Positions 3,652 through 28,776 of a stretch of DNA of 28,778 nt are shown one piece after another. The notes under the pieces were generated by a model. The model had not been told where the DNA came from. It saw only the letters and a list, made by a program, of their open reading frames with translations, and ran no database searches. This DNA comes from Myxococcales bacterium (lineage in GTDB: Bacteria; Myxococcota_A; UBA9042). Made by a program: the position numbers and the translations under genes. Position 1 is the first letter of the stretch, and each line of letters opens with the position of its first letter. The stretch spans positions 1 through 28,778 of the forward strand of contig JBBISH010000086.1 of assembly GCA_037441385.1 (NCBI GenBank), given 5' to 3'.

Positions 3652-3806
3652 GGCAACTCCTGCTGGGCGCATCGTGCAAGGCCCATGCGGCATAAGTGTA
3701 GTGATCGCGGCGCCTCTAGGCAACGAGAGCGCGGCGCGGCCGGGTTTGACACGGCTGCAGCCATGGGCACACTGGGGGCCAGAGCGGCTCGCTCGGAGAA
3801 CAAACG

Positions 3807-4988: not shown

Positions 4989-5040
4989 CTAGTACGCCAG
5001 CGACGGCAACCCCGAAAGAACTTGAGATTTGGCGTACTAG
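4989..5040. repeat. Palindromic element 2 with perfect 11-bp inverted repeats (CTAGTAC...GTACTAG)
   Basis: ctagtacgcca (4989-4999) pairs with tggcgtactag (5030-5040); 30-nt spacer. The terminal CTAG contains the TAG stop (5037-5039) of the minus-strand gene. Confidence 0.75.
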
Positions 5041-6509: not shown

Positions 6510-6665
6510 GCAGTGCCTGTGTCCCGGCTTGCGCGGGACAGGCCGCAGTGTAGCGGGGTGCCGCGGCGAATCCAAATTGCCCGCAAGGTTGACCGCTATG
6601 CGCGGCACCTTTAGGCTTTCGCGCCTTGTGCCGCGACCCTGGCGCCGCGGAAGGGAGTTGGACCG

Positions 6666-11129: not shown

Positions 11130-11468
11130 GTGACTGGTTTTGGATACCTATGCCCCGAATGTCTGGAGGTGCCCGCCGCGCAGTGCGCCTACCGCGGCTG
11201 CCCCCAACGGGGCATGGCCACCGCGACGGTTGCCAGCTTGACGGCAGGATCCGCAGATGCGACCCGCGCCGTGTCGCCAGGAAGCCCTTTGCCCAATCCG
11301 GGCTTGCCGGAACCCGGCCGGGCCGGCGACGCCTTGGCGACTCGCTTCGTCGACCCAGGCGTGGGCCCCCCGCCCGCCGCCAACCCGCCTGCCCCTGCGC
11401 CGGCATCCGTTCAAGCCGACGACGCGCTGGCCACGCGCTATGTTGGGCCGGACAAGAAGGGAGGCTGA
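11130..11468 (+). CDS. Small Zn-ribbon protein (Cx2Cx7Cx4C) with a disordered tail carrying three T-R-x-V motifs
   Basis: GYLCPECLEVPAAQCAYRGC at the N-terminus; DATRAV, DALATRFV and DALATRYV. Fills the gap between neighbours; its stop is 1 nt before the next ATG. Confidence 0.7.
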   Translation: MTGFGYLCPECLEVPAAQCAYRGCPQRGMATATVASLTAGSADATRAVSPGSPLPNPGLPEPGRAGDALATRFVDPGVGPPPAANPPAPAPASVQADDALATRYVGPDKKGG

Positions 11469-11469
11469 C

Positions 11470-12198
11470 ATGGCGAGTTTTGTGGGCAGCGGCGCCGCCA
11501 TCGGCCGCTCGGCCGCGATTGCCGCGTTGGGGCTGGGCGTTTTGGCCGTGCCAGGTCTGCCGGTCTTGGCCGCCGTCGCCGTTGCGGTGGTGGCCGGCCT
11601 GACGGCTGCGTGGTGGCTGGCCCTCGCTGGGCGCGCCCGCCTGGACAGTGTGGAGCTCCGCTTTGTGCCACCCGAATTGCCCACGATCGCGAGCCCTGCG
11701 CCCGCGGCGGCAGCCGCCGACGGGGGAGCGCCCACGGGCACCGAACGAATTGCCGCGGCTCCGGTCCCGCTGCCTACGGCCGCCCAGACCCATTTCCAGG
11801 CCACGCCGTCGGACGTGGTGACACTGGGGGCCAGCGCTGACCCGGCTTTTCCAAGCTGGCGCCTGCACTGGCAATTGCCCGACGGGCGCGAGGGCCTAGT
11901 GGTGCTGCCGGCGGGCGAGCGCACCGTCTTGGGGCGCCAGTCCGACTGCCAGATCATCGTCCAGCTGGACGAAGTCAGCCGCAATCACCTGATCTTCCAG
12001 GTCGCGCGTCAGAGCGTCCGCGTCACCGAGACGGGGTCTTCCAACGGCACCTGGCGGCGCTCGGCGGGCGACAGCAGCCACACCTTGTGGACCCGCTTGT
12101 CGGCCGGCGCTCCCCAGCCGCTCGCGGCCGGCGACCAGTTGCGCATTGCCGATCCTTGGGCCATCGTACTCACCCTGGAGAGTGTGGTTCGCGGCTGA
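11470..12198 (+). CDS. Membrane-anchored FHA-domain protein
   Basis: AGGGAGG RBS before ATG 11470; long N-terminal hydrophobic segment. FHA signature VLGR...CQI...VSRNH...GSSNGTW...GDQLRI with the pThr-binding G-R, S-x-x-H and N-G-T residues intact. Confidence 0.9.
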   Translation: MASFVGSGAAIGRSAAIAALGLGVLAVPGLPVLAAVAVAVVAGLTAAWWLALAGRARLDSVELRFVPPELPTIASPAPAAAAADGGAPTGTERIAAAPVPLPTAAQTHFQATPSDVVTLGASADPAFPSWRLHWQLPDGREGLVVLPAGERTVLGRQSDCQIIVQLDEVSRNHLIFQVARQSVRVTETGSSNGTWRRSAGDSSHTLWTRLSAGAPQPLAAGDQLRIADPWAIVLTLESVVRG

Positions 12199-12216: not shown

Positions 12217-13542
12217 GTGTTGTTTCGAATGCTTGCAATGCTGCGCTGGCTCGCCGTTCTGGGCTTGCTCCTGCTCGCGGGCGCCACCACGGCTGTGGCC
12301 GTGCCCCCTCCGCCTCCCAGTGGGCATCGCGCCTTTGACGCCATCGACGCTTCCGTCATGTTCACGCGGTGTTTGCCCGCCGGTCAGCCCTGGAATCGCC
12401 GGCTGACGGTCACCGACAAGGGCACGGGCCACCGGCTGAGCGAGGCCGAGATTCAGGCCGAAAAGCTGCGGGTTACGTTGGTGGTCAACGGCGTCGACAC
12501 GGATGTCAAGCAAGTGGGCGACGGCTTCGACTTCGACTGGGTCCCGGCGGCCAACGCCAAGAATTACACCGTGTCCGTCAAGCTGAGCACGGCGACGACC
12601 ACGGTGGCCGGCATTCCTCGCGACGTGTTTGCGGCCCCCGATACCCATGTGCAACTCCCCACCGAGCTTGCGATTTCGCCGGTCGAAGGGGGCTGCAAGT
12701 CCGATGCGCACTGTGTGCCGTTGGACCTGGGCAAGTCGGTGGGGTTGTGGCCAGGGCTGCAGCTCAACATTACCCGAAAAAAGCCAGCTAGTTCAGGCGG
12801 TTGGGCTGCAGCGCCCATGCACTTGCAGGTCGGCGGCAAGCTGATCCCCTTCGAGCGCGACAAGCCCGTCGAGCTGTCGTACCAACCCACCCAAACAGTG
12901 CAGGTCTGCTATGCGGCGCCGCGCTGCACCCAGCCGCCGGCCGACACCTCTGAAGTCATCGAGATCAAACCCGTTCACTTCTGCCTCGCCGACGCCGACG
13001 AGGCCTGCAAAAAGGAGCCCAGGGGTATTGGCTGCGATCGGCCGCGCTCCGCCAGCGTGGTCGTCAAGGCCGACGTCAAGCCGAACAGTTGGCTGGACTG
13101 CAACCTGTGGTGGATCCTCATCGTCGCGGGGGTACTCCTGTTCTTGTTCATCGTCGCCGGCCTCGTCACCCCCAACCAGTTCGCCTCGGCGGCGATGGTG
13201 CGGGTCGCCAACAACGATCGTCAGCTGCGGCGCGAACAGGGGCGGCCGCTGCGCCGCGAGCCCGGGGGCAAGCGCGGCTTCTACCGCACCGCCACCGTGT
13301 GCTTTACCGACATCGGCACCACGGTCAAGAAGTCGCAGGGCCACATCCTGATGCTCAAGGCCGGGCCCGACAAAGAAATTCAAATTCACCGCAAGGGCGC
13401 AACCCTAGAGCGGTTCGAGCGCAACGCTTGGCGGCAGGTCGATCCTGTCGCCACCGGCAAAGACGTGCTGACCGAGCGCACCCTGGTCAGCGGCGGGCTG
13501 TACCGCGTGAACAACACGTACTATTTCATCGTCGATTTCTAG
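12217..13542 (+). CDS. Single-pass membrane protein: signal peptide, Cys-rich beta-rich ectodomain, TM helix, basic cytoplasmic domain
   Basis: GAGGA before the GTG; signal LRWLAVLGLLLLAGATTAVA; 9 Cys before the TM LWWILIVAGVLLFLFIVAGLV; about 120-aa Arg/Lys-rich C-terminal domain ending YYFIVDF. Confidence 0.8.
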   Translation: MLFRMLAMLRWLAVLGLLLLAGATTAVAVPPPPPSGHRAFDAIDASVMFTRCLPAGQPWNRRLTVTDKGTGHRLSEAEIQAEKLRVTLVVNGVDTDVKQVGDGFDFDWVPAANAKNYTVSVKLSTATTTVAGIPRDVFAAPDTHVQLPTELAISPVEGGCKSDAHCVPLDLGKSVGLWPGLQLNITRKKPASSGGWAAAPMHLQVGGKLIPFERDKPVELSYQPTQTVQVCYAAPRCTQPPADTSEVIEIKPVHFCLADADEACKKEPRGIGCDRPRSASVVVKADVKPNSWLDCNLWWILIVAGVLLFLFIVAGLVTPNQFASAAMVRVANNDRQLRREQGRPLRREPGGKRGFYRTATVCFTDIGTTVKKSQGHILMLKAGPDKEIQIHRKGATLERFERNAWRQVDPVATGKDVLTERTLVSGGLYRVNNTYYFIVDF

Positions 13543-13579: not shown

Positions 13580-16500
13580 ATGGCCAACGAGTCCACTGCA
13601 CCGCAAAAGCCCGTCGCCCTGGGCTTCGACGACCTCAAGGGCGTGCCGCCTACGTTCTTCATCGGCATGGGCGGCTCGGGCGGCCGCGTCGTCGACGTGC
13701 TGGCGCAGCGCCTGAAAAGCGAGCCGACCTGGCCTAAGTTCCAAAAGCTCATCCACTTCTTGTGCGTGGACACCGACGCCAATGACCTAGCGCGCCTGGC
13801 CAAGCGGGTCGAGACCAGCAACATCTCGATCTCGGACAAGAAGCGCCGCATCGAGCTGCTGCGCGGCCGCATGGACCACGACGCCAACGAGCGCATCACC
13901 TCGTGGGTGCACCCCTGGTACGGCTTCCGCGACGTGGCGGGCAAGGGCGCTGGCCAGATCCGCTTGGAGTCGCGATTTTCGCTGCACTGTCAGATTGCCG
14001 ACGCACTGCCGGGCAACCTGCGCGACATCGTGGTCCGCAAGCTGCGCGAGTCGATGGACGCGCTGAACCCCAACCAGCAGCGCGGCGCCAACGTGCGCTT
14101 CTTCATCTACGGCTCGCTGGCCGGCGGCACCGGCTCGGGCGCTTCGCTGACCGCGGCGTACCTGGTGCGCAAACTGGCCGAAGACGCGGGCGTGCCGGCC
14201 GAAGTGTTCGGCATGTTCTTCTTGCCCAGCGTCTTTCGCGATCGAGTCGAGTCGGCGCTCGTCAGCAAGATCAACTCCAATGGTTACGCGGCCCTCAAAG
14301 AGATCGAGTGGTGCATGGAGATGCGCTACGACGGCGCGGGGCCGGGCGAGCTGGAGTACGTCTTTGACCCGCGTCGCACGGCTTCGACCAAGGTTGACCG
14401 GAAGCAGGACCGCGTGACCCGCGCGCCCTTTGACTGGGTCTATGTGGTCGACAAGCCCGAGAAGCTGGCGATCGAGCAGATCTACCAGGCGGCCGGCGAG
14501 TCGGCGTACCTGCAGCTGTTTTCGCCGATCATGGCCTTCCAGGATCGCGAGGGCGACAACTTTGCCCAGCTGCAGAGCGAGCCCAGCGACGGCTTCTTTG
14601 CCGTGCAGTACGGCTCGATGGGCTCGTCGGTGCTGGAATTCCCGCGCGAACGGCTGGTGCGCTACTTCGCCCGCCGCAAGACCGTGGAATTGGTCGAGCG
14701 GCTGGTGGTGGGCAAGCCGCCGACCGGCTCGGGCGTCGCCGACGACCTGGTGCTCAGCGGCCGCGAGTTCCTGGACCTGGCCGAGAGCGAGCAAAACCGC
14801 CGCATCGACGAGGCCTTCAAGCGCTTTGTCGAGTATGAAGCGCGGCAAGAGAGCGAGGCGGAAAAGCGCGGCATGTTCACGGACATCGCCGAGCTGCGGG
14901 TGGGCCAGACCAACCTGCTGGACGAGTTCCGCGCCCGCCTGAACGCCGAGATCGAGGGCCTGAAGTCCGAGGTGGTGATCGCCACCATCAACGCGCCCGC
15001 GATCACGCCGGAAAATCCGACGTTGAACCACGCGCGCGTCAACCTGGGCCGCGACTACAAGGCCGGCAAGCAGACCGTGGACAAGAAGGCGCAGATGCTG
15101 GCGCGCGACATCGCGTCGGGCCAGTACCTGAGCAAGTTCTTCCGGGATTTCAAGGCGTCGCCGCTGCAGCAGCGCTACTTCCTGGTGCGTTTGAACGAGC
15201 TGGCCCGCAACCAGGACCTGCGCACGGGCGTAGAGGAAGAGGACGCGTCGCTGCTCGAGTGGTGCTTCCTGCCTTCGTCCGATATCGACTCGGTGGCCTA
15301 CCTGGCGCGCAAGCCGCCGGAGCCGATCGAGTACGACGTGGACCTGCCCGAGGTGCGCAAGCGCATCAGCGCCGCCGAGGAGCGGCTGTCGACGGCGGCC
15401 AAGAAGCTGATCGGCAAAGAGAAGGCCTTTGACGAGGCCCGTATCTCGGCCGTGCGTGAGTTCCAGCGCTTGGAGCAGGCGGCGGGCGACGCGCTGGTCA
15501 TCGACTTCTGGCATCAGATCAACCGCGCCCTGCGGCAGCACTCCGAGAAGCGCGCGGATCTGTTCCGGGTCATCGCCAAGAAGGGCCTGAGCCAGGTCGA
15601 CCACCTGCGCGCCCAGGCCGAGAACTGCCGCAACCGCGGCGCGGCGGTGCCGGACATCGGCAAGACCGACGAGGATCTGGCGGAATTCCACCTGGGCAAC
15701 GAAGTGTTCCACGACGCCCGCAACAAGCTGCGCCAGTGGCACCTGGCCTACAAGGTGCTGGTCGAAGAGGACTTTGTGGTCGACACCGGCGAGGTGCTGG
15801 CCAAGGTCAACGAAGTGCTGGATCAGGCTGCGGCAGGCACAGGCAACACCGCGGGCGCGCAGAACAATTCCGACGACGTGTTGGCCGGCATCATCGACCG
15901 CATCGACAAGCAGATGCGCGAGAAAATGCAGCGCTTTGTCGACGTGGACAAGGGCATGAACCTGTTCAACGCCCTAGAGATGGAGATCCGCATGAGCCAG
16001 CTGGGCAATGCGGCGTGGATGACGGCCAAAGACTTGGAGAAGGTGGAGCTGAACGCCATCGAGCCGTACCTGAAGGACAAGCTGGGCTTTGTCGCCTCGA
16101 TGTCGGTGCCGCTGGCCCGGTTCGACGAAGCGGTCTTGGCCGGCGCCGGCAAGAAGCCCTATCGTCCGCGCTTCTACGGCGTGGATCACAAGCTGCTGGA
16201 CAAGTCGCCGGCGGTGGCGCGGGCGCTGCGCGATGCGGCCAGCGGCTTCTCGATGCTGGAAGACTGGAATTCGCACGACATTTTGGCGTTCTACCAGGCG
16301 ACCTTGGGCGTGCCGCTGTACGCGTGGCGCGACGTGCAGGACGATCTGGCCATCGCCTACGAGTTCGAGTCCAATGAGTCGGGCCGCGGCCACCCGATGC
16401 ATGTGGATTCCCGTTGGGAAAATCGCGGCTTCCACGACAATCCCACCTTGGGTATCCCCGGGCTGTCGCTGGGCGCGCGCCGCAAGTGGCAGGCCGAGAA

Positions 16501-16885
16501 GAAGGCCTACGAAGAGGAACTGGCCCGTAAGAAGCGCGCCGAAGAAGAGGCGATGCTGCGGCAAGCCTCGGCTTCGGCTGGGCAATTGGCGCGGGCGCTG
16601 GCGGCGGGCTTTGTCACCGAGCTCTACGGCGCCTGGAAGCTGTCGTACCGCGGCCGCGACTTTGAGCTGGGCACCGGCCTGGCCGAGAGTCTGCAGAAAT
16701 TCGCCGCGTTGCCCGATGCAGTGCGCGGTCCGGTCGATCGCGCGGCGGCCGAGACGCTGCAGAGCGAGCCCGGAAAGGTCGCGGATGTGCGCAACAAGCT
16801 GGACGACTGGCTGTTCGACGCCGGCTCCGAGGGCCGCACCGCGGACGAAAAAGCGATCGGTCTGCTGCAGGCGCAACTCAAGTAG
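13580..16885 (+). CDS. Tubulin/FtsZ-like GTPase of the FtsZl1 (Pfam Tubulin_2) family with a long helical C-terminal extension
   Basis: GAGGA RBS. FIGMGGSGG (T1), CVDTD (T2), GKGAGQIRLESR (T3), GSLAGGTGSG (tubulin signature, 14111-14140), FFLP, NGYAALKEIE, PFDWVYVVD; C-terminal FYQATLGVPL...AY...PMHVDSRW. Confidence 0.93.
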   Translation: MANESTAPQKPVALGFDDLKGVPPTFFIGMGGSGGRVVDVLAQRLKSEPTWPKFQKLIHFLCVDTDANDLARLAKRVETSNISISDKKRRIELLRGRMDHDANERITSWVHPWYGFRDVAGKGAGQIRLESRFSLHCQIADALPGNLRDIVVRKLRESMDALNPNQQRGANVRFFIYGSLAGGTGSGASLTAAYLVRKLAEDAGVPAEVFGMFFLPSVFRDRVESALVSKINSNGYAALKEIEWCMEMRYDGAGPGELEYVFDPRRTASTKVDRKQDRVTRAPFDWVYVVDKPEKLAIEQIYQAAGESAYLQLFSPIMAFQDREGDNFAQLQSEPSDGFFAVQYGSMGSSVLEFPRERLVRYFARRKTVELVERLVVGKPPTGSGVADDLVLSGREFLDLAESEQNRRIDEAFKRFVEYEARQESEAEKRGMFTDIAELRVGQTNLLDEFRARLNAEIEGLKSEVVIATINAPAITPENPTLNHARVNLGRDYKAGKQTVDKKAQMLARDIASGQYLSKFFRDFKASPLQQRYFLVRLNELARNQDLRTGVEEEDASLLEWCFLPSSDIDSVAYLARKPPEPIEYDVDLPEVRKRISAAEERLSTAAKKLIGKEKAFDEARISAVREFQRLEQAAGDALVIDFWHQINRALRQHSEKRADLFRVIAKKGLSQVDHLRAQAENCRNRGAAVPDIGKTDEDLAEFHLGNEVFHDARNKLRQWHLAYKVLVEEDFVVDTGEVLAKVNEVLDQAAAGTGNTAGAQNNSDDVLAGIIDRIDKQMREKMQRFVDVDKGMNLFNALEMEIRMSQLGNAAWMTAKDLEKVELNAIEPYLKDKLGFVASMSVPLARFDEAVLAGAGKKPYRPRFYGVDHKLLDKSPAVARALRDAASGFSMLEDWNSHDILAFYQATLGVPLYAWRDVQDDLAIAYEFESNESGRGHPMHVDSRWENRGFHDNPTLGIPGLSLGARRKWQAEKKAYEEELARKKRAEEEAMLRQASASAGQLARALAAGFVTELYGAWKLSYRGRDFELGTGLAESLQKFAALPDAVRGPVDRAAAETLQSEPGKVADVRNKLDDWLFDAGSEGRTADEKAIGLLQAQLK

Positions 16886-16918: not shown

Positions 16919-18904
16919 GTGAGCATTCCGGTCCAAGTCGCGGTCACTAGCGGGACCTTGCTGCCCGCCGTCGAAGAGGTCCAGGCCCGCCTGGGGACCA
17001 TTGGCGGCGCGCAGATGTTGTGGGTCTTGAGCGACTTGGAGCAGCCCGACGTGCCGCAACGGGCCGCGGCTCAAGTCCGCGCGATGCTGGGCGCGCGCCG
17101 GCACGAGGGCGGCTTTGCCCAGATCGTGCTGGCTCACGACGTGGCCGGGATGAACCACGCCCTGCAGGTGCTGCGCGGCGCCGAACCCGGCCGTACGCCC
17201 TGGGCGCTGGTAGTGATTGGCCTTTTTGAGGAAGGCGACGTGGTCGAGCCGTTGCCTGCCGGGGTTTCGTCGGTGCACGTGGTGCCAGCGGCGCTGGCCT
17301 ACCGCGAGCTGGGCTGGCGCGAACGCGAGCGATCGGCAGCCAACTTGTTGGGACTGCTGACGGATCTGGCGCGTTCGGACCGGGCGCGCGAGTCGTGGCA
17401 GCAGTGGGTGGCGACCTACGCCGGTGTGCGCGTCACCCTGGCGCAGGCGGCGCGCTTCCAAGCGCCCATGGTGCAGCGCGTTTTGGCTCGGCGGCTCGCC
17501 TCGCGAGTCGTCGAGCGCATGATCGACGCCTTGGGGCAGGGCCAGCGCCCACAGACCGCTCCGCGTCTGGCCGATCCACCGGCCGCGCCGGACCACGATG
17601 TGCAAGAAGCGCTGAGCCAGCGCGCCCACGAGCTGGGCGAAAAGGTGGCCGTGCGCATCGTGGGTGCCGACGACGACGTGCAACCGCTTCCTGCCGAAGA
17701 GGTTTTGCACCAGCGCGCGCGCCGCGAGGTCCGCGAACTGCCGCAGAAGCTGGAAGACGTCTTGAAGCGCCACGGCAGCGACCTGCGCGACAAGGCGCTG
17801 GCGTGGCAAGGCGAACTGCGGCAATGGGTCGATGCCGCGCTGGAGCAGGCGAGTTTTGCGGCGCTGCCGGGAGTCATCGCCAGGCTGGAAGCGTGGCTAG
17901 AGCGCCTGGCGCTGCCAATGCACGACGGTAGCCAGCACGGGCCGCGGCAGGCCCTGCGATTGGACCCGCCGGACTCGGCCCAGCTGCGTGCAGCGGTGCA
18001 GGCGCTCGAAGCCGAGCTGGCCGCTCACGACGACTCGCACTTGCTGTTTGGCGGCTGGTCGCTGGCCATCGGCACTACGGTGGGGCTAGCCACCGCGGCA
18101 GGGCTGCAGGCCTTGGGCACCCATGCGCCACTGGCCGCTGGCGGCGTGGGCACTGCGGTAGTGGGCGCGGGCGCTGGGATTTCGGCGGTCCGGTCGCGGC
18201 TCGCCCAAGCTCAACTGCGGCGCCTGCTCGCCCAAGAGCAGCTGGCGCGCCAGGCCTACCGGGCGGCGTGGACCAAACTCATCGAGCGGCAGATCGCCGA
18301 CATCGGTGCGGTCTTGAACGAGCGCATGGTGCGGTTCGCCAGCGAGGTGGTGCAAGGCGAGTTGGTGTGGCTGCGGTCCGTGCGCGACACGCTCAGCGAT
18401 TTGTACCAGCAGTATCAGAAGCCCGAGCGGCTGCGCATGGGCTCGGACTCGGCGTTTGAGTCCGACATCCGCCTGCCCGAAGAGTTCTACGCCAAGGCCG
18501 AGCAAGTGGCCGACGCGTCGCCCTTGTTTGCCGAATACGAAGGGCAGCTGGCCCAGTCCAACTGGCGTCAGCGCCTGGGCTTCATGAACAGCGACGCGCT
18601 GCTGAAGCAATGCGAACTGGCCTACGGCAGCTTCCGCGAGCAAATCCCCTTTGATCAGCGCGCCGAGCTGCGCGACGTGGCTCTGGGACCCACGGGCGTG
18701 GCCATTCGGCAAATGCTCGACCGGCTGGCCGACTACCTGCCGCCCGAGTTTGGCGCCGACACCATGGTGGTGCTGCCTTCGCGGCTGTCGGACGCGGTGC
18801 CCGATGACCGGGTGGGCGCGCTGCAGATGCACCTTGGCGTGAGCGACGTGTTCGTGGCGGTATCGCGGCCGGCGGCGCCGCGCAGCGACTGGGCGGGGCA
18901 GTAG
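16919..18904 (+). CDS. Helical protein with a central Gly/Ala-rich TM hairpin; probable inactive paralog of the adjacent tubulin-like protein
   Basis: AGGGAG RBS before the GTG. Hydrophobic hairpin LLFGGWSLAIGTTVGLATAAGL...AAGGVGTAVVGAGAGISAV flanked by coiled-coil-like helices. By-eye colinear similarity to the 13580 protein but without its Gly-rich GTP loops. The CDS is secure; the paralogy is inferred. Confidence 0.65.
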   Translation: MSIPVQVAVTSGTLLPAVEEVQARLGTIGGAQMLWVLSDLEQPDVPQRAAAQVRAMLGARRHEGGFAQIVLAHDVAGMNHALQVLRGAEPGRTPWALVVIGLFEEGDVVEPLPAGVSSVHVVPAALAYRELGWRERERSAANLLGLLTDLARSDRARESWQQWVATYAGVRVTLAQAARFQAPMVQRVLARRLASRVVERMIDALGQGQRPQTAPRLADPPAAPDHDVQEALSQRAHELGEKVAVRIVGADDDVQPLPAEEVLHQRARREVRELPQKLEDVLKRHGSDLRDKALAWQGELRQWVDAALEQASFAALPGVIARLEAWLERLALPMHDGSQHGPRQALRLDPPDSAQLRAAVQALEAELAAHDDSHLLFGGWSLAIGTTVGLATAAGLQALGTHAPLAAGGVGTAVVGAGAGISAVRSRLAQAQLRRLLAQEQLARQAYRAAWTKLIERQIADIGAVLNERMVRFASEVVQGELVWLRSVRDTLSDLYQQYQKPERLRMGSDSAFESDIRLPEEFYAKAEQVADASPLFAEYEGQLAQSNWRQRLGFMNSDALLKQCELAYGSFREQIPFDQRAELRDVALGPTGVAIRQMLDRLADYLPPEFGADTMVVLPSRLSDAVPDDRVGALQMHLGVSDVFVAVSRPAAPRSDWAGQ

Positions 18905-18905
18905 G

Positions 18906-21728
18906 ATGGCGGCAGCGACCTTGCTCATGATTGTGGCTGGAATTTCCGGCGTGCTCATCGTCGCTTGGCTGCTGGCGGTCCAGGCTGGTCCCGACTGGTT
19001 GCGCCCAGGCCACGGCCCGCTCTGGTACTTCTCGGCGGCCGCGACGCTGCTTGTGGGTGGGGCGCTTGCGGCGCTCCAGCAAGTGGGCGTGCTGCCCGAG
19101 CACCGCATTGGCGGCCTGCCGGGTACCCTTAACGCCATGATCCTGGCCGAGATTTTGGTGATCGTGCTGTTCCCAGTGATGTGGTTGGCGTTTTCGCAAC
19201 TGCACAAGCCCGGGCCGCGTGAAGCCCCAATTCCGCGCCTATTCATCTACTTGGGCATCGCGCCCGACGGATCGCCGCTACTGGAACTGCGTTGGATGTT
19301 GCGCACGCTGGCCGTGGTTGGTCTGCTGGTGGCCACGCTGGCTATCCTGGGCATGGACCTGTCGTCGGTGATCGGCAGGGGGCCGCGGCAGCACACGCTT
19401 TGGGCCTTTGGTTATGCGGCGTTACTTGGCGTGTTGTTCGGCTCAACCCATCCCGTGCGGCCGGTGCCGGCGGCCCGGCGTGCGCCTTCGAACGAGGCAG
19501 TCTTGCCCAAGGCCCCGTTCGACAAGCGCATCGACGCGCTGCATCGCTGGCTGGGCAGTCCGGTCGAGGCGGAGTCGCTGCAGGAAGTGCGCCGCGACCG
19601 CAAGGGCCCGCGCCAAACCGACCAGCGCTTTGGGCTGGATCTCTATCCGTTCCAGGCGCGCCTGCTCGACGAACTGAGCGATGCGCCGGCCGTGGCCCTG
19701 GCGGGACCGGCGGGGACGGGGCGCACCACTGCGGCGTTGCTGCGGGCGATCGACATGGCGCTGGCTACGGGTGCCTCGTGCGCAGTCATCACGCCCACGC
19801 GCGACGCCGTCCGCCAGAATCTGCTCCACGCGCGGGCTCTTTGCGAGCGTATCAGCGCCGGCGCGGCTGTGACCTTGGACGACGGGGTGCCGCCGCGCTC
19901 GGCCGACCTGTGGCTGGTCTCGCTCGACGACTTGGAACGCTTTTTGGACGAGACCATCGATCCGGCTGCGCTGCCGATCATCGGCCGGCTGAAGCTGGTG
20001 GTGGTGGACGACCTGGACCAGCTGTACGGTCCTGAAGTGGCGCGCCTGCGCTTTGTGGTCTACCGCCTGATGGCCCTGCGGGGCGCGGCTCAGCCGCAGT
20101 TGCTGCTCGCCGGCAATCTCTCTCCGCAAGTGCTGCAGCAGGTTGCCGAACGCGTTGCGACGGGCACCGTGCGGGTGGTGGCCACTGCAGGCGAAAATGA
20201 TGCCAGCGGTGCCGCTTCGCGGGCCGTGCGCCGCTTCGTGGTCGACCCGTCGCGCGTCGATCACAAGTCCACCTCGACCTTTGGCCTGCTGGGCATCCGC
20301 GATGGCTACGAACGGCTGGTCACTGAGGTGCCCGACGCGTCCATGCGCTTGAACGCCGCGCTGCTGGGCGATCCGTGGTCGCCGTGGCCGCCGCCCGACC
20401 AGAGCCAGCCCGACCAGCCCGCCGAGGTGCTGTTGGCGCGGGTGGGTCCGCGCTCGGCGTGGCACGTGCTGGGGCATCGGCGCTACTACCCCGAAGCCGC
20501 GGCACCCGCGCACGAGTACCTGCTGTTTGCCGACGATCCCCTGAGTCAGTTGCTGGTGGGCCAGTTCCGCGATCGCCATAGCTGGTGGCCCACGTGGTAC
20601 GACACCTCTCGCTTTCCGCGTATCCTTTCTGCGGTGCCCGGCGGCAGTGCCACGCCGCAAGGCCTGTTGACCCAGGCGCGCGCCCACCTCCGGGCGGCGC
20701 TGGACAAGGGGTTTTGCGACGTCGAGCGGCTGCGACAGGTGTTCTCGCCCGAAGTGGCCGATCAAGTCCTGGCCAGCTTGGACAATTCGCGCAGCTTCGA
20801 GCGCTTTGAAGCGTGGCGACCCAATCCGGCCGATCCCAAGAAGCCGCAAATCGTCCAGCTGTGCCGTGCCCAAGGGGCGGCAACGGGGGACCGCAGCGCC
20901 ACCTACGAGACCGCGGAACTGCGCGACCCGTCGGTGGGTTTGACGTTCAAGGTCCCGGCGCCGCTGCTCGATGTCGACTTCTACGACGGTGCCATTCTGC
21001 AGCGCGCCGGCCGGCGCTACAAAGTCGTCTCTGACCCGCGCCAACCCAAGCAGCGTCAGTTGCAGGTCGAGTCGTCGGCCATGACGGCCACGCCGATCCG
21101 CGCCATGCAATTCAAGCGCCACGGCAGCGGGCCGATGGACGTCCGGTTCCAGCGCTACGGCGGCCAGAAGGGGCTGGAGACTGTCCGCTGCGCGGTGCAG
21201 CTGCAATTGACGCACCACGGCGTGCACTTCTTTGGCCACACCCGCACGCCGGGCGCCACGGGTCGCACGGACTCCCTGCAGCGCCTCCACGAACAGATGC
21301 TGCCGCAACCCCTGACGTCGCAGGGTTTTGTCACCCGCGCGTGGGTGGTCTGCCCGCCCGACGCGGACGAGGTGGTGCTGCATACACTGACCCACGTGCT
21401 GCGCGACTGCCTGGACTACTTCTTCTTGGGCGCCAGCGACTTCATCGGGGTCGGCTACGAGATGGACTTGGGCGGCAAGGCCGGCATCGTGTTCTACGAC
21501 CGCCACCCCGAGGGCCTGGGCTGCCTGGACGACATCGACGACGCCAAGGACTTGCAGGCGATCCTGGCGGCGGCGCGCGAGATCCTGGCCGGCTGCGACT
21601 GCGAGTCGTCGTGTGCCAAGTGCTGCCGCTCGGTGGGCTGCACGCGCCGCCCGCACAACCACGACCTGGACCGCAAGCGCACGGTGGTGGTGCTCGACGC
21701 GCTGCTCAGCCGCGGGAGGGTCGGTTGA
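18906..21728 (+). CDS. Membrane-anchored, motif-degenerate MrfA/Hrq1-type SF2 helicase with a C-terminal DUF1998 Zn-binding domain
   Basis: About 5 N-terminal TM segments. Q-motif LYPFQ, Walker A GPAGTGRT, motif Ia TPTRD, motif II LVVVDDLD, FADDPL. DUF1998 pattern LHTLTHVL...IVFYDRHPEGLG...AREILAGCDCESSCAKC. Confidence 0.85.
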   Translation: MAAATLLMIVAGISGVLIVAWLLAVQAGPDWLRPGHGPLWYFSAAATLLVGGALAALQQVGVLPEHRIGGLPGTLNAMILAEILVIVLFPVMWLAFSQLHKPGPREAPIPRLFIYLGIAPDGSPLLELRWMLRTLAVVGLLVATLAILGMDLSSVIGRGPRQHTLWAFGYAALLGVLFGSTHPVRPVPAARRAPSNEAVLPKAPFDKRIDALHRWLGSPVEAESLQEVRRDRKGPRQTDQRFGLDLYPFQARLLDELSDAPAVALAGPAGTGRTTAALLRAIDMALATGASCAVITPTRDAVRQNLLHARALCERISAGAAVTLDDGVPPRSADLWLVSLDDLERFLDETIDPAALPIIGRLKLVVVDDLDQLYGPEVARLRFVVYRLMALRGAAQPQLLLAGNLSPQVLQQVAERVATGTVRVVATAGENDASGAASRAVRRFVVDPSRVDHKSTSTFGLLGIRDGYERLVTEVPDASMRLNAALLGDPWSPWPPPDQSQPDQPAEVLLARVGPRSAWHVLGHRRYYPEAAAPAHEYLLFADDPLSQLLVGQFRDRHSWWPTWYDTSRFPRILSAVPGGSATPQGLLTQARAHLRAALDKGFCDVERLRQVFSPEVADQVLASLDNSRSFERFEAWRPNPADPKKPQIVQLCRAQGAATGDRSATYETAELRDPSVGLTFKVPAPLLDVDFYDGAILQRAGRRYKVVSDPRQPKQRQLQVESSAMTATPIRAMQFKRHGSGPMDVRFQRYGGQKGLETVRCAVQLQLTHHGVHFFGHTRTPGATGRTDSLQRLHEQMLPQPLTSQGFVTRAWVVCPPDADEVVLHTLTHVLRDCLDYFFLGASDFIGVGYEMDLGGKAGIVFYDRHPEGLGCLDDIDDAKDLQAILAAAREILAGCDCESSCAKCCRSVGCTRRPHNHDLDRKRTVVVLDALLSRGRVG

Positions 21729-22852
21729 TCAGTCTGAACCGCAACGACGTGATCTTGGCCGGGGCGCCCCTGCCGGGTTCTGCCCCCGCCGTGGTGCAGC
21801 CCGCGCGTTGCCAGGGTGCGCAGGCGCTGGCCAAGTCGTACCCGATCCCCGTCGACCCGGCGCAAGCTGGCGCGTGGCTCCAGGCCGAGGCGTTTGCCAC
21901 GCAGAAGGTCCAGCACGTGTGCGTGCCCAAGGTGCTGGGCAGCTGGCAGGGTCAAGATGGCACTGCGCATTTGATCCTGCAGCGGCCGGCCGGTCGCCGC
22001 TGGGACGAAATCGTGCGCATCGGTCAGCAACGCCACAGCTACATGGCTGCGCGCGCCTGGGACGAGGCGACCCGCCACGTGGTGCGATCGCTGGCCCATT
22101 GCATCGAAACGGCGCATTTTTCGGGTGTTGCCCACGGCAACTTGGCGCCGGACAGCGTGTGGGTCGACCTGACCGCCATGGGCGAACTGGACATCAAAGT
22201 GGTCGATTTCTTGGGCAGTACCCCGCTGGTGCCGGGGCCGCGCCTGCGTTTTGCCGCGCCCGAGCAACTGGCTGGCCAGGCGGCCGACGCCCGCACCGAT
22301 GTGTACCGCCTTGCGCTGTTCGTGTATTTCTCGCTGACCGGCACCACGCCGTGGCCCACCGACGATCTGGCTGCCGCTCGCACGGCGCGGCTGGCTCCCG
22401 TGGATCGCGTGCCCGACGAGCGCGCGGCCGCCGCTTGGGCGCTGGTGTCCAAGTGGCCCGAGGTGGCCCGCACCCTGCAAGTGGGACTGCAGGCCGATCC
22501 CAACAAGCGCCCGCAGACCATTGCACAATTCGTCAGTCTGCTGGGCTTGGGGTGGGCGCTGCCCGAGCCGCGGCGCAGCATGGACGTGGGTTACGCTGTG
22601 GCGGGCGCACTCGCGATGCTGGCGGCCGTAGCGGTGTCTTGGCCTGCGGAAGATAGCCGTTTGACGCGGGCCCTGCTCGATCGCCAACCGTTGGCTGCCT
22701 GCTCGGCGCAACTACCGGTACTGGCTCAGCAAGTCTGCGCCAAATACGGTGCCAGCCGTCCGCAGTGCCAGCAGGCCCTGACGTTCGTGCTGGGCCGCGA
22801 AGAATGTCCCAACCGTATCAAGACGCTGCGCGCCTGCTTGGGCGAGCCGTGA
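21725..22852 (+). CDS. Transmembrane Ser/Thr pseudokinase with a small Cys-rich C-terminal domain
   Basis: The TTG start overlaps the helicase TGA (TTGA) and follows GGGAGG. Hanks-type motifs ALAK, QAEA..QKVQH, HGNLAPDS (for HRDLKPxN), VVDFL (for DFG), FAAPEQ, DARTDVY, DPNKRP. TM VGYAVAGALAMLAAVAVSW; 5 Cys in the tail. Confidence 0.85.
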   Translation: MISLNRNDVILAGAPLPGSAPAVVQPARCQGAQALAKSYPIPVDPAQAGAWLQAEAFATQKVQHVCVPKVLGSWQGQDGTAHLILQRPAGRRWDEIVRIGQQRHSYMAARAWDEATRHVVRSLAHCIETAHFSGVAHGNLAPDSVWVDLTAMGELDIKVVDFLGSTPLVPGPRLRFAAPEQLAGQAADARTDVYRLALFVYFSLTGTTPWPTDDLAAARTARLAPVDRVPDERAAAAWALVSKWPEVARTLQVGLQADPNKRPQTIAQFVSLLGLGWALPEPRRSMDVGYAVAGALAMLAAVAVSWPAEDSRLTRALLDRQPLAACSAQLPVLAQQVCAKYGASRPQCQQALTFVLGREECPNRIKTLRACLGEP

Positions 22853-22883: not shown

Positions 22884-24287
22884 ATGACCGTTGCCAAACT
22901 CATTGAGTACATCCTGGTGTTCTCGCTGGTGCTCATCTCGGGCCTGGGCATGGGCTTGGGCATGAGCGCGAGCCAGCGCCACCACGAACTCAGCATCGGC
23001 CTGGACACCGGGGTGCCGTCGTCGTGTGCCGCGCTGTCCAAGGGCCACGGCGACTCGTGCAAAGGCGCGTTGACCAGCGAAGCTGGCAAGGTGCTGGGTG
23101 TGCCCATCGCCAACTGGGGCATGGCCACCATGGGCATCGCCTTTGCGGCTGCGCTCGTCTTTGCCGGGGCGCTGAGCGTGGGAGCGTGGCAGGTGGCCGC
23201 GCACGTCTTCTCGCTGCTGGTGTTGCTCGCGCTCATCGACTTGGGCGGGACGTTGACCTACTTGTACATCGGCCTGATCCAGATGGGCACCAAGTGTGCG
23301 ATGTGCTTGGCGATGCACACGGCCAACGCCGCATTTTGCCTGGTGGTCGGCTTGGCGTGGACCAACATGGGCGACCGGATGCGCGACCTGGCGCGGACCC
23401 AAGGGCCCGCCTGGAAACGGCAGGTGGCGGCGACGGTGGCGCTGGGCGTGGGCTTTTGGTTCATCGTCAGCGTGGGCACGGACTTCTACTTCACCGAGCA
23501 GCAACGGCGCCTGCACAAGAAGCGCACCGACGGCGCCGAGCTGATTCGCGAGCGCGGCGAGGTGATGCTGGCTTGCCCGGCCAAAGACTGCATGGCGTCG
23601 CTGCAGTACGCGACGGCGGACCTGCCGCCCGACGACGCCTCGCTGGTGCTGGCCAAGGCGGCGCCAGGCCGTCAGACCCTGGTCGAGATGCTCGATATGT
23701 CGTGCCCGCACTGCCGCCACGAGTACAAAGAGCGCATGTCGATGCTCTACCACCGGCTGCTGGCCGCGCCGGATGGCACGGGCGCGCGGCTGCTGCTGTG
23801 GCCGGCCTCGAATGAATGCAACCCCGAGTACGGCGGCCAGAAGCTCCCCAACTGCGAAGCCAACGCGGCGCTGGTGTGCGCCTGGCAGGCTGGTCCAGAT
23901 CAAGGGCTGGCCTACGCCGACGAAGAAGCCAGTCACGCCCACGAGCAGGTCACCTTCGACCGGCCGGCCTGGCTCAAATCCAAGGCGGGCGCCGCGGCCG
24001 AGCAGTGCTTCCAGCGCGAAGTCTCGGCTGGCTTCCCCACCCTGAAGCGCCACGTCCAGGCGGCGGTCAAGCTGCGCGAGGTCGCCCGGGGCAAAAGCGC
24101 CGAGTGCCGCACGGGCCTGGACGCCGGCGGCAAGCAAATCGACGCTGGCGTCTTGTACTGGTGCTTCACGGGCACGCCCAGCTACGCGGTGTTCGGCGAC
24201 CGCGGCAGCGCGCCCGGTCCCGATCAACGGCTCCAGGCCGCACAAGCCTTTGATAAATGGCCGTTCTTGGCGGGTTGCCTGAAGTAG
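22884..24287 (+). CDS. Vitamin K epoxide reductase (VKOR)-DsbA/thioredoxin fusion
   Basis: VKOR loop Cys pair SSC...DSCKGALTS, then VLGVPIANWG and a CAMC redox motif within about 5 TMs. C-terminal DsbA-like domain EMLDMSCPHC...ECNP...CEA...GTPS. Confidence 0.9.
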   Translation: MTVAKLIEYILVFSLVLISGLGMGLGMSASQRHHELSIGLDTGVPSSCAALSKGHGDSCKGALTSEAGKVLGVPIANWGMATMGIAFAAALVFAGALSVGAWQVAAHVFSLLVLLALIDLGGTLTYLYIGLIQMGTKCAMCLAMHTANAAFCLVVGLAWTNMGDRMRDLARTQGPAWKRQVAATVALGVGFWFIVSVGTDFYFTEQQRRLHKKRTDGAELIRERGEVMLACPAKDCMASLQYATADLPPDDASLVLAKAAPGRQTLVEMLDMSCPHCRHEYKERMSMLYHRLLAAPDGTGARLLLWPASNECNPEYGGQKLPNCEANAALVCAWQAGPDQGLAYADEEASHAHEQVTFDRPAWLKSKAGAAAEQCFQREVSAGFPTLKRHVQAAVKLREVARGKSAECRTGLDAGGKQIDAGVLYWCFTGTPSYAVFGDRGSAPGPDQRLQAAQAFDKWPFLAGCLK

Positions 24288-26083: not shown

Positions 26084-26452
26084 CTACTTGCCCTGCCAGT
26101 CGCGCAGAGCCTGGACCGCCTGCTCCAGGGCCGCCTCCAGCGTCGCACCCGTCCAGGCTCCGGCCACGCTGCCGCCTGGCTCGGTCACTACGCAGCAGGG
26201 CAGGGTAGCGCGACCGTCCCCCACGCCCAGGGCGCGCGCCACGGCGCCATCGCGGTCTTGGGCCCTGTCCACGCACGTAAGCGCGGCCAGGTTGCCCACC
26301 CGAGTCTGAATGGGATCGCAGTTGCAGGTGCCTGGGCTCAGCGCCAGCAGCCACCACTGCCCGGCCGGCGGGCCGAGCGGCCGACGATCCACCGCAAGTG
26401 GCGGCAGTGGATCGCCAGGCCGCAACAGCCAAGCCCAGTCCGTTGCTAGCAT
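26084..26452 (-). CDS. Small degenerate redoxin/AhpC-TSA-like protein (122 aa)
   Basis: The ATG overlaps the upstream TAA (TAATG at 26454-26450). LRPGDPLPP...GQWWLLALSPGTCNC...DRDGAVARALGV...LPCCVVTEPGGSV matches the redoxin strand/helix pattern. Confidence 0.6.
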   Translation of the reverse strand: MLATDWAWLLRPGDPLPPLAVDRRPLGPPAGQWWLLALSPGTCNCDPIQTRVGNLAALTCVDRAQDRDGAVARALGVGDGRATLPCCVVTEPGGSVAGAWTGATLEAALEQAVQALRDWQGK

Positions 26453-28776
26453 TACTTCGTACGGATGCGCGCGACCAGGTTGGCGGTCATCGTGGCCGCG
26501 TTCTGCACGATCGCGCCGTTGTTGTCGACGCCCTGCGAGCCGACCAGATACAGCCAGCCGGTCTGGGCATCGAACCAAGCGCGGCGCACGGCGGTGCGCG
26601 ACAGGGCCGTCGCGTTGCCGCAGCTGGACAGCGTCTTGCTCATGACCAAGAGCTGGTCCCAGGTCCAGGTGCCGGCGGTGGCGTCAAACGTGCCGTGAAG
26701 CACAAAGGCGCTGCGGCAGATGGTGGTGCCCGTGGTCGGCGTGTACTCGCCCACCACCCAGCCGTCGCTGCCCACGACCGAGATGCCGCGCACGTCGAAC
26801 TCGGCGCTCCACGGGATCACCGCACCCTTCACGTTCGGCACTTGCTGGGTCCAGGTGTCCTTGTCAAAGCTGTACAGCGTGCCCAGCGAGCCGCCGACCA
26901 GAACATGGCTGGCCGAGCTGCCGTGGATGGCGCGGAACTCGCCGACCGGCGTACCCGTGGCCGTCTGGTTGACCGTCAAATCCTGCGCGGCGGTGCTGTT
27001 CGTCGTGATGAGACCGTTGAAGTTGTCCACGTTTCCGCAGGTGTTGGTGGTGTTGCCGTCGTAGAAGCCGACCACCGACTGATTGGGGGTGCCGGCCACC
27101 GTGCCCGCGTAGAAGACTGCCGTGGCGCTGGCGGCGAAGATGTCGGCAACACCCAGAGACACCGGAGTGGCGCAGGCGGTGCCGGTGCCCGCCGCCGCGT
27201 ACATGCGCTGGAAGCCCTGGAACCCGTTGTTGTTGGTCCAGCCGATGCGCGAGATGTTGGACTTCCACATGTTGTTGTTGGCGTTGTCGGCGCCGCCGCC
27301 CAGGTAGTAGGTCTCTTGGTTGGCGTTGGTGGCGATGAGGTCCACGGCGGTCGCGCCCTTGGTGTAGCCGTTGACGGGCGCGTTGTTGTTGAACCAGTTG
27401 CCCTGCAAGAACTGCATCGCCGTGCCCTGGGTGTTGGCCACGTTGCCGCCCACCGACAAGCGCCGCGCTACGTCGGCCAAGTAGGTGTTGTTGTTGCTAT
27501 TGGCGGCGAAGACGATGTTGACCGGCGGGTCGGTGATGGTGTGCATGATGCCAATCGGCGTGCCGGCCCAAATCGTGGTGCCCGAACCGAACACCTGGGT
27601 GTTGCTGACGCGATCGATGCCGGTCATCAGGTTGTTCGGGCCGTTTTGGGCGTTGATGATGTAGGCCTTGCTCGACACGCCGGTGCAGTAGGTGTTGTGG
27701 CAGTAGCCGTAGGCGGCGGTGGTGTCGGCCGGGGTGCAGGCCGTGCCGTAGGCGACGGTGGCGTTGACGCAGCCCTTGGCGGCGTCGCAGCTGTCGGTGG
27801 TGCAGGCGTTGTTGTCGTTGCACGCCGTGGGCGCCGGCAGGACGCACGAGCCGTTGGTGCACGAGCCCGCGCCCGTGTAGTTCAGGCCGTTGCACGTGCC
27901 CGCGCCGCAGGCCGAGCCATTGGCCTTGGTGGCGTAGACGCAACCGATGGTCTTGTCACAGCTATCGGCGGTGCACGAGTTGCTGTCGTCGCACACCGGC
28001 GCCGGGCCGCCCACGCACGCGCCATTGGCGCAGGTGTCCTGAGTGGTGCAGGCGTTGCCGTCGGTGCAGGGGGCCGTGTTCGGCGTGTTGATGCAGCCCT
28101 TGACCTGGTCGCAGCTGTCGTTGGTGCAGGGGTTGTTGTCGTTGCACACCGTGGGGCCGCCCGACTTGCAGGTGCCGCTCGCGCACACGTCGCCGGTCGT
28201 GCAGGCGTTGCCATCGTCGCAGGCGACGGTGTTGTTGGCGTGGGCGCAACCGGTCTTGCTGTCGCACGAATCGGTAGTGCACACGTTCTTGTCGTCACAG
28301 TTGGTCGGGGTCGGGCCCTTGCAGGCGCCGCCGCTGCACACGTCGCCCGCGGTGCAGGCGTTGCCGTCGTCGCAGGGGTCGCTGTTGTTGGTGAACACGC
28401 AGCCCTTGGCCGGGTCGCAGGTGTCGTCGGTGCAGGGGTTCTTGTCGTCGCAGACGACTGCGGTGCCACCGCACTTGGTGCCGCTGCAGATGTCGCTGCT
28501 GGTGCAGGCGCTGTTGTCGTTGCACAGGGCGGTGTTGGCCTTGTGCAGGCAACCGGTGGTCGAGTTGCACAGGTCGTCGGTGCAGGGGTTCAGGTCGTCG
28601 CAGCTCTGCGCCGCCGGGGCCGCACCGCACTTGCCGCTGCCGCACACCGGCGCGGCGTGGAAGCCGTCGTTGCCGCAGCTGGGCGAGCCGCAGGCGGTGC
28701 CGTCGCTGGCGTTGGTGTTCTTGCAGCCCGTGACCGCGTCACAAGTGTCGACCGTGCAGGGGTTGCCGTCGTCGCA
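26452..28776 (-). CDS. 5'-truncated large extracellular protein: tandem CDDxNxCTxDxC Cys-rich repeats plus a C-terminal Asn-rich beta-propeller-like domain
   Basis: The frame stays open to the window edge (CDDGNPCTVDTCDAVTGC...). Alternating CxDxNPCTxDxCDxxxGC and CxDGNACTxxDxCxxGxC units. C-terminal blades FRAIHGSSASHVLVGG and DVRGISVVGSDGWVVG. Confidence 0.88.
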   Translation of the reverse strand, partial: CDDGNPCTVDTCDAVTGCKNTNASDGTACGSPSCGNDGFHAAPVCGSGKCGAAPAAQSCDDLNPCTDDLCNSTTGCLHKANTALCNDNSACTSSDICSGTKCGGTAVVCDDKNPCTDDTCDPAKGCVFTNNSDPCDDGNACTAGDVCSGGACKGPTPTNCDDKNVCTTDSCDSKTGCAHANNTVACDDGNACTTGDVCASGTCKSGGPTVCNDNNPCTNDSCDQVKGCINTPNTAPCTDGNACTTQDTCANGACVGGPAPVCDDSNSCTADSCDKTIGCVYATKANGSACGAGTCNGLNYTGAGSCTNGSCVLPAPTACNDNNACTTDSCDAAKGCVNATVAYGTACTPADTTAAYGYCHNTYCTGVSSKAYIINAQNGPNNLMTGIDRVSNTQVFGSGTTIWAGTPIGIMHTITDPPVNIVFAANSNNNTYLADVARRLSVGGNVANTQGTAMQFLQGNWFNNNAPVNGYTKGATAVDLIATNANQETYYLGGGADNANNNMWKSNISRIGWTNNNGFQGFQRMYAAAGTGTACATPVSLGVADIFAASATAVFYAGTVAGTPNQSVVGFYDGNTTNTCGNVDNFNGLITTNSTAAQDLTVNQTATGTPVGEFRAIHGSSASHVLVGGSLGTLYSFDKDTWTQQVPNVKGAVIPWSAEFDVRGISVVGSDGWVVGEYTPTTGTTICRSAFVLHGTFDATAGTWTWDQLLVMSKTLSSCGNATALSRTAVRRAWFDAQTGWLYLVGSQGVDNNGAIVQNAATMTANLVARIRTK

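Follow-up and report, generated by a model that had tools for sequence, protein, structure and literature searches.

We analyzed a stretch of 28,778 nucleotides from a Myxococcales bacterium (contig JBBISH010000086.1, assembly GCA_037441385.1), hereafter called the window, and in it one gene on the forward strand, at 18906..21728, hereafter called the target. The open reading frame call and translation showed that the target is intact, with an ATG start and 940 aa. It is a structural member of the YprA/MrfA helicase family that lacks the catalytic motifs of that family, and it lies inside a predicted FtsZl1 system, near the gene for a tubulin-like GTPase. Based on its motifs and gene order, we consider that the target is probably a membrane-anchored, hydrolysis-disabled descendant of the YprA/MrfA proteins of helicase superfamily 2 (SF2), and a fixed subunit of the FtsZl1 membrane system of Myxococcota.

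Such a protein would have ceased to be a translocating motor, and would serve at the inner membrane as a clamp or adaptor that holds nucleotide. Its ligand, which may be single-stranded nucleic acid or else a protein partner, would be held under a canopy made of the OB, connector and zinc domains, and through this ligand the membrane would be tied to the FtsZl1 GTPase and to the kinase and FHA signalling parts. A helicase family known from DNA repair and anti-phage defence would thereby gain a membrane-tethered, apparently non-catalytic branch. The partners of FtsZl1 have so far been listed as 'membrane-associated' unknowns, and the YprA body would be their first structurally interpretable subunit.

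Domain order and fold of the target

The domains of the target are as follows.

18906..21728 (+): whole gene, predicted membrane-anchored YprA/MrfA-like protein (P0001); open reading frame, Pfam DEAD and MZB, homologs, dN/dS
18906..19460 (+): N-terminal membrane domain, residues 1-185, five predicted helices; hydropathy, AlphaFold2 models, conserved columns
19509..19625 (+): N-terminal region of the YprA body, residues ~202-240, helix 205-215 and strand 221-225; AlphaFold2, start of the VIA-align match
19626..20165 (+): RecA1-like domain, residues 241-420; Pfam DEAD, hhalign, dN/dS 0.024
20166..20585 (+): shortened RecA2-like domain, residues ~421-560; AlphaFold2, VIA-align, hhalign
20586..20795 (+): helical domain at the winged-helix position, residues 561-630; AlphaFold2, MrfA domain scheme, hhalign
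20796..21365 (+): OB-like domain (~631-722) and long antiparallel beta connector (~723-820); AlphaFold2 strands 631-816, MrfA alignment, hhalign
21366..21725 (+): MZB/DUF1998 zinc-binding domain, residues 821-940; Pfam MZB, conserved Cys
21591..21641 (+): Cys cluster GCDCESSCAKCCRSVGC, residues 896-912; motif location

The full-length AlphaFold2 model had a mean predicted local distance difference test score (pLDDT) of 86.1 and a predicted template modelling score (pTM) of 0.76. When this model was compared with the PDB by Foldseek, the four best matches were all MrfA structures, with 6znp_A first (E 4.9e-23, 832 columns), and the next family was Hel308 (E 2e-7). VIA-align placed model residues 202-934 on residues 2-749 of the MrfA chain (Z 20.7, root-mean-square deviation (rmsd) 7.1, 627 aligned), and two-RecA DEAD-box chains matched model residues 236-561, such as that of Dbp5 (3pey_A, Z 17.5, 278 aligned). 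The same relationship was found at the profile level, where hhalign, run between 30 family members and seven canonical MrfA-like helicases, gave a probability of 99.8% and an E-value of 1.9e-29 over 612 columns, through residue 935. The Pfam scan found DEAD at residues 248-375 (profile positions 2-131 of 167, E 1.1e-6) and MZB/DUF1998 at residues 828-907 (E 6.3e-9, above the cut-off), with no Helicase_C match; DEAD, Helicase_C and MZB were all detected in 7/7 canonical relatives by the same scan.

The 30 family members used here and in the motif counts below consist of 20 closer relatives and 10 distant ones, the latter of 770-890 aa and likewise with hydrophobic segments near the N-terminus. 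A search by word index against 5.8 billion proteins had returned 14 relatives at 40-99% identity, of which 13 were full length, and an exhaustive HMMER search of 1.84 billion cluster representatives returned 76 proteins at E ≤0.001 and 22 at E ≤1e-30. The lowest identity among full-length relatives was 29%. Those with a name are called 'DUF1998 domain-containing protein' and come from Myxococcales or Deltaproteobacteria metagenome bins; related loci, where titled, come from lake and groundwater Myxococcota bins. The G+C content at third codon positions of the target (0.85) is like that of the adjoining genes, in a window of 66-70% G+C.

In the part of the MrfA paper used here, MrfA is described as a single-stranded DNA-dependent ATPase and 3'-to-5' helicase, with an N-terminal region at residues 1-39, RecA1 at 40-250 and RecA2 at 251-423, followed by winged-helix, OB, connector and MZB domains (Roske et al. 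2021, PMC7797055). Every one of these elements has a counterpart in the target, so that the protein shares domain order and fold, from the N-terminal strand to the Cys4 domain, with the MrfA/YprA group (Bacillus subtilis MrfA 6ZNP, SftH and Hrq1), and the length of its cytoplasmic body, ~740 aa, is close to the 749 aa of MrfA. The structural features of the family are present: an N-terminal strand with two RecA-like domains, an OB-connector-MZB canopy and a four-Cys signature, which is a predicted zinc site. Cys897, Cys903, Cys906 and Cys912 are invariant in 30/30 sequences, and Cys899 is kept in at least 90%. Unlike MrfA, the target carries five additional membrane helices and non-canonical motifs I, II, III and VI, its motifs IV and V were not found, and its RecA2 is ~35 residues shorter (~137-140 residues against 173), shortened yet still present. 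It also has no MrfB-like exonuclease partner, and is linked to a tubulin-like GTPase gene rather than to repair genes.

Within the N-terminal part, Kyte-Doolittle hydropathy showed four strong segments, and AlphaFold2 predicted five long helices (3-27, 37-60, 74-99, 126-149 and 164-180), both in the full-length model and for residues 1-200 alone; the mean pLDDT of the membrane domain modelled alone was 79.7. An initial annotation, made from the letters of the sequence, had described the target as a MrfA/DUF1998 helicase fused to about five transmembrane helices, with a shortened second RecA region and a retained DUF1998 Cys cluster, and the analysis confirms this description with small corrections. 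The best-kept stretches of the membrane domain in a 14-sequence alignment were two loops, GHGPLW (nt 19008-19025) and GIAPDGSPL (nt 19254-19280). In a search of 48,161 solved chains, none reached Z 8 against the membrane domain. The best was TTYH1 (Z 7.5, rmsd 4.3, 123 aligned), and a fold assignment was dropped given that this Z is below the meaningful level for helical bundles. P-loop and Cys4-zinc domains are cytoplasmic domain types, and therefore we assign a cytoplasmic location to the helicase-like body; five helices would then put the N-terminus outside.

The ATPase site and its conservation

The following motifs were located in the two RecA-like domains.

19641..19655 (+): Q-motif-like LYPFQ, Gln250 invariant in the 14-sequence alignment; alignment, hhalign
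19704..19730 (+): Walker A GPAGTGRTT, residues 267-275, Arg273 in place of Lys; hhalign, motif location
20007..20018 (+): DDLD (368-371) in place of DExH, within the motif II stretch VVVDDLDQL (residues 365-373, nt 19998-20024); hhalign, C70 paralogue
20106..20120 (+): motif III position LAGNL, residues 401-405, in place of SAT, Asn404 invariant in the 14-sequence alignment; hhalign
20463..20489 (+): motif VI remnant HVLGHRRYY (W-x-V-L-G-H-R-R-Y, residues 519-527); hhalign, C70 paralogue

Aligned with the canonical helicases, the pairs are:

LYPFQ in the target, LYxFQ in the canonical form
GTGRT in the target, GSGKT in the canonical form
PTRDAV in the target, PTKALA in the canonical form
DDLD in the target, DExH in the canonical form
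GNL in the target, SAT in the canonical form
HVLGHRRY in the target, QRxGRAGR in the canonical form

None of the canonical catalytic signatures of SF2 (GxGK[ST], DExH, SAT and QxxGRxGR) is thus present, and motifs IV and V were not recognisable in RecA2 by Pfam or hhalign. The Arg273 codon, CGC, is two substitutions away from any Lys codon. The same correspondences were obtained when the target was compared with a canonical YprA paralogue of its own genome (contig C70, L061:2919-5744, minus strand), a protein of 941 aa with GKS, DELH, SAT, QQMGRAGR and the Cys cluster, whose gene adjoins a UvrD-like gene of 765 aa. In the initial annotation, the ATPase motifs had been read as systematically degraded. 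Its DDLD and AGN do stand opposite DExH and SAT, and its GTGRT is the Walker A motif, with the position shifted from about 19701-19727 to 19704-19730. It had also seen no recognisable QxxGRAGR; the canonical motif is gone, yet it is not wholly absent, since HVLGHRRY stands at its place as a remnant that keeps the conserved Gly and two Arg, offset by one position from the canonical ones.

We also counted these states among the relatives. In the 20 closer ones, the Walker A position is Arg in 17 and Lys in three, and motif II has an acidic pair of the form [DE]-D in all 20 and D-E in none. The 10 distant relatives all have Lys, with the next Ser/Thr missing in nine, and their motif II is degraded further. 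Given that DExH occurs in 0/30 family members (as does SAT), the replacement of the ATPase motifs is, to judge from the sequences, an old family-wide change and not lineage-specific decay. The initial annotation had named canonical GKT and DExH orthologs with lineage-specific decay as one of the findings that would speak against it; GKT-type P-loops do occur, in a minority, and DExH does not. When the seven canonical helicases were used to root a maximum-likelihood tree, the family formed one starred clade, the Lys/Arg state needed at least three changes, and the Lys-bearing P0015 and P0016 are nested deep among Arg-bearing sequences; the tree was made by a quick method (LG+G4), and the long rows G072 and G006 are of uncertain place in it. 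Such repeated switching of a P-loop residue would be a natural case for the change from a motor to a switch or scaffold.

Next, we calculated the ratio of nonsynonymous to synonymous substitution (dN/dS, Nei-Gojobori) between the target and its closest ortholog, in genome G058 (92% identical). The ratio was 0.052 overall, at a synonymous distance (dS) of about 0.96, and by region it was 0.024 for RecA1, 0.056 for RecA2 and 0.109 for the membrane part. In other words, purifying selection acts on the gene, and no part of it is more constrained than the 'degraded' ATPase domain. A decaying helicase relic without present function would account for the lost catalytic motifs. However, the dN/dS, the absence of internal stops in 7/7 full-length matches from related genomes, the conserved synteny described below, the confident AlphaFold2 model and the full-length relatives down to 29% identity all stand against it; we rejected the idea of a decaying gene on the intact frames and the dN/dS, and regard a relic as hardly credible.

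In its ATPase site, the family retains the glycines, a positively charged residue, the acidic pair and the Gln of the Q motif, but neither the catalytic Glu nor a strict Lys. Lys-to-Arg and Glu-to-Asp changes generally cripple hydrolysis in P-loop ATPases. By analogy with P-loop enzymes in general, we infer that such a site would be expected to hold nucleotide and need not hydrolyse it efficiently. The same conserved residues (P-loop glycines, basic residue, Thr/Ser, Q-motif Gln and a pair of acidic residues that follows the Walker B strand), together with the strong constraint on RecA1, the two conserved Arg at the motif VI place and the GK[ST] of some relatives, might also be explained by a still-active NTPase or translocase that works with atypical residues (Arg in the P-loop, Asp for Glu) and pulls nucleic acid or a polymer at the membrane. 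However, the catalytic Glu of DExH and the SAT motif are found in none of the 30 sequences, the distant clade replaces the Mg-binding Ser/Thr in 9/10, the alternation of Lys and Arg on the tree is hard to square with a strict catalytic need, and RecA2 is short and without a Helicase_C match. An active motor of this kind therefore seems quite improbable to us.

The gene cluster and its link to the tubulin-like GTPase

The target is the fifth gene of a co-directional run that consists of an FHA gene, a 441-aa gene, Tubulin_2, a 661-aa gene, the target, a kinase-like gene and a VKOR fusion.

11257..12198 (+): FHA-domain protein; Pfam FHA E 5.9e-9, synteny
12217..13542 (+): conserved 441-aa protein of no known family (u441), upstream of the tubulin-like gene; synteny
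13580..16885 (+): FtsZl1-type tubulin-like GTPase (Tubulin_2), 1101 aa, two genes upstream of the target; PF13809 E 1.1e-48
16919..18904 (+): conserved 661-aa hairpin protein of no known family (u661); synteny
21725..22852 (+): Ser/Thr-kinase-like gene (Pkinase), TTG start; Pfam, overlap with the target stop
22884..24287 (+): VKOR-family membrane protein with a Cys-rich C-terminal part; Pfam VKOR E 2.7e-9, synteny

The junctions around the target are tight, with a gap of one base between the u661 stop and the target start and an overlap of four bases between the target stop and the kinase-like start. To see how far this order is kept, we compared the DNA around eight relatives with the proteins of the window by tblastn. 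The order u441, Tubulin_2, u661, target and kinase-like gene was found in 5/8 loci (G058, G159, G189, G109 and G146), of which the first three belong to the same genus as the source, and the target is 27-37% identical in G109 and G146. VKOR comes next in four of these five and is missing in G109. A sixth locus, G319, has the same order without a u661 match. In the remaining two, G224 and G299, also of the same genus, the cluster starts at u661 beside a divergent zinc-ribbon gene (L032 and L034), with u661, target, kinase-like gene and VKOR together, and the tubulin ortholog, 80-81% identical, is on another contig (L040 and L041). The target and the tubulin gene are thus neighbours in this cluster in six of eight related loci. 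The genes that stand upstream in place of the tubulin in G224 code for a divergent zinc-ribbon protein and an ABC ATPase. The ortholog in G146 has a GKS P-loop and EDLE at motif II. It appeared to be a split gene (L036 9866-12669), an idea we discarded; the two frames reflect an assembly gap, with a run of X at the junction.

We also searched 401 sampled genomes of the phylum, of which 91 contain Tubulin_2. The family profile gave 33 matches at E ≤1e-5, most of which cover the zinc domain or the RecA1 part only, in a scan whose stricter first look may have missed weak matches. In five more genomes (G072, G232, G006, G013 and G256), a match follows Tubulin_2 on the same strand, at a distance of 7-9 kb. 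The order there is Tubulin_2, a large protein with a mid-chain hydrophobic pair, and a protein with 5-6 N-terminal hydrophobic segments; in G072, G232, G006 and G013, the mid-chain hydrophobic-pair proteins take the u661 position after Tubulin_2. The divergent relatives occur in two forms. One is a frame of 924 aa that contains an MZB domain and aligns to the family over its last 300 residues (probability 98.6%), and the other is a frame of 1208-1624 aa with a DEAD match, a canonical GKS P-loop and DDLE at motif II. These results indicate that a YprA-derived protein, predicted to be membrane anchored, is a wider feature of Myxococcota FtsZl1 clusters at this place, and that different lineages have apparently lost different parts of the ATPase site.

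The cluster as a whole resembles the FtsZl1 operons. In the parts of the text drawn on here, Makarova and Koonin 2010 (PMC2875224), who defined FtsZl1, list vWA, OmpA-like, kinase, FHA and 'membrane-associated' B1-B9 proteins as its neighbours, and propose membrane remodelling for these systems. Shared with them are the ~1100-aa GTPase, membrane-associated partners, and Ser/Thr-kinase and FHA genes: the window has the Tubulin_2 gene two upstream of the target, FHA and Pkinase genes, and membrane helices in the target and the VKOR protein. A vWA protein was not found in the window, where u441 had no vWA match at E up to 5. In G013, the gene upstream of Tubulin_2 is a weak vWA match (E 3.2e-4, 21.4 bits, below the Pfam cut-off of 23.8). 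The words 'helicase' and 'DUF1998' have 0 occurrences in the text and six supplements of PMC2875224, and the literature searched contained no experimental study of FtsZl1/Tubulin_2 operons, which were predicted in 2010. Full-text searches on DUF1998 with transmembrane or pseudohelicase, and on PF13809, Tubulin_2 or FtsZl1, returned nothing on the target.

A different role is suggested by what is known of defence systems. The initial annotation had proposed a membrane-tethered pseudohelicase that may bind or sense nucleic acid, such as incoming DNA, and relay to the tubulin. In this view, the target might be a sensor of phage or transforming DNA at the inner membrane that binds single strands with its retained OB-connector-zinc canopy and triggers the tubulin-like GTPase, as part of a defence or conflict system. 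Foldseek, VIA-align and hhalign all show that the target retains the complete DNA-binding architecture of MrfA, and in MrfA, according to the part of the paper used here, the canopy entraps single-stranded DNA (PMC7797055). In its passages on the subject, a 2025 survey of the YprA family, in preprint form, distinguishes branches that serve repair and defence and makes YprA-family proteins central to several defence systems; DISARM DrmA/DrmB, Druantia DruE, Dpd and ARMADA share the YprA core and the OB-connector-DUF1998 canopy (10.1101/2025.09.15.676423). Similarly, as far as the covered passages of Kaur et al. 2020 go (PMC7159879), firmicute and actinobacterial tubulin neighbourhoods are placed among GTPase-centric conflict systems, with vWA, FHA and kinase proteins, and the GAP1-N2 tubulin theme shares with our cluster a tubulin, membrane proteins, kinase, FHA and predicted inactive enzymatic domains. 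The clade also keeps an Arg that aligns with the invariant Arg of the canonical relatives (Arg487 of P0058, matched to the ISLRSA stretch of MrfA; of the R491 type, which anchors the rope in MrfA), a mapping that is tenuous.

However, the motifs by which SF2 enzymes grip nucleic acid in RecA2, IV and V, are the ones that are not recognisable in the target, and motif Ia is not conserved across the family. PADLOC gave weak partial DruE matches (E 7.7e-7) at residues 821-931, confined to the zinc domain, and none for the neighbours tested. PADLOC, Pfam and NCBIfam revealed no defence gene in the window, whether nuclease, methylase or other; the surrounding genes encode secreted repeat proteins, a TPR protein and metabolic functions, and no defence island is seen. 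The defence homologs of YprA are described as helicases in the passages covered (10.1101/2025.09.15.676423), whereas the target lacks the catalytic motifs and has a membrane anchor; a BrxA-like insert and a partner nuclease or methylase are likewise missing. 'Transmembrane' and 'tubulin' have 0 occurrences in the main text of the preprint. In Kaur et al., 'DUF1998' has 0 occurrences, and no helicase passage concerned the tubulin theme among 12 of 22 places (PMC7159879). Pfam and NCBIfam, used without a dedicated GAP1 model, showed no GTPase in the window beyond the tubulin-like protein, and neither the DO-GTPase nor the GAP1 component of the theme was recognised there. We therefore consider a defence sensor unlikely.

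One may also speculate that FtsZl1 systems in general are membrane machines that act on single-stranded nucleic acid. The dead YprA clamp, anchored in the inner membrane, would grip a foreign or self strand under its canopy, its nucleotide-bound state would nucleate or release the tubulin polymer, and the kinase and FHA protein would set the threshold. We think this rather doubtful; if it is true, a pseudo-helicase would serve as the receptor for a prokaryotic tubulin, and such a coupling was not found in the literature searched.

Several results weigh against a hydrolysis-disabled, membrane-anchored subunit fixed in the FtsZl1 system, the reading that we prefer. The loss of hydrolysis is read from motifs, and turnover might still proceed slowly at a site that combines Arg in place of Lys with an acidic pair (DD or ED). 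A canonical GK[ST] is present in six relatives (P0015, P0016, P0023, P0027 and the proteins of G006 and G146), and therefore nucleotide chemistry may matter in some lineages. The dN/dS comes from one informative pair (G058), in which a dS of ~0.96 is near saturation, and four more distant pairs are dS-saturated, with ratios of 0.22-0.33. The few charges in the membrane-domain loops mean that the positive-inside rule decides little, and the predicted topology is tentative. The adjacency of target and tubulin is broken in 2/8 loci (G224 and G299). Finally, the G072-type relative has no P-loop and aligns only over its C-terminal 300 residues, so that the common function may need the canopy part only.

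Other features of the window

With regard to the neighbours, the search of the Atlas returned only unnamed clusters for u441, and no informative Pfam match emerged for the unassigned genes, even with E allowed up to 5. The u661 protein has a Gly-rich hydrophobic stretch near residues 375-425. Co-folding of this protein with target residues 1-240 gave scores of 0.27 and 0.31, against a mark of 0.32. We also considered that u661 is a dead tubulin paralogue, and dropped this candidate after hhalign found no similarity to the tubulin-like protein (probability 0.1%).

The kinase-like gene has HGN in place of HRD and DFL in place of DFG, and its protein carries a C-terminal membrane helix and a Cys-rich tail. 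Its orthologs of the same genus have HGN, HAN or HAT, and those in the distant clusters L035-L037 have HND, one of them with DFG. It therefore looks like a pseudokinase in the genus of the target only.

Elsewhere in the window, a UshA-like gene on the minus strand (5037-6530) has an in-frame TGA at 6084-6086, and its frame extends upstream through this TGA. Readthrough would give ...DPCGU... and a hydrophobic N-terminus, which makes the product a candidate selenoprotein. With readthrough, the score of the NCBIfam model 'UshA-like (seleno)protein' rose from 157.5 to 202.3 bits, below the cut-off of 275. Large repeat proteins flank the region, at 280-3816 and 26452-28647, both on the minus strand; one has Lamin-tail, thrombospondin type 3 and DUF4215 repeats, and the other has Dictyostelium-type Cys-rich repeats.

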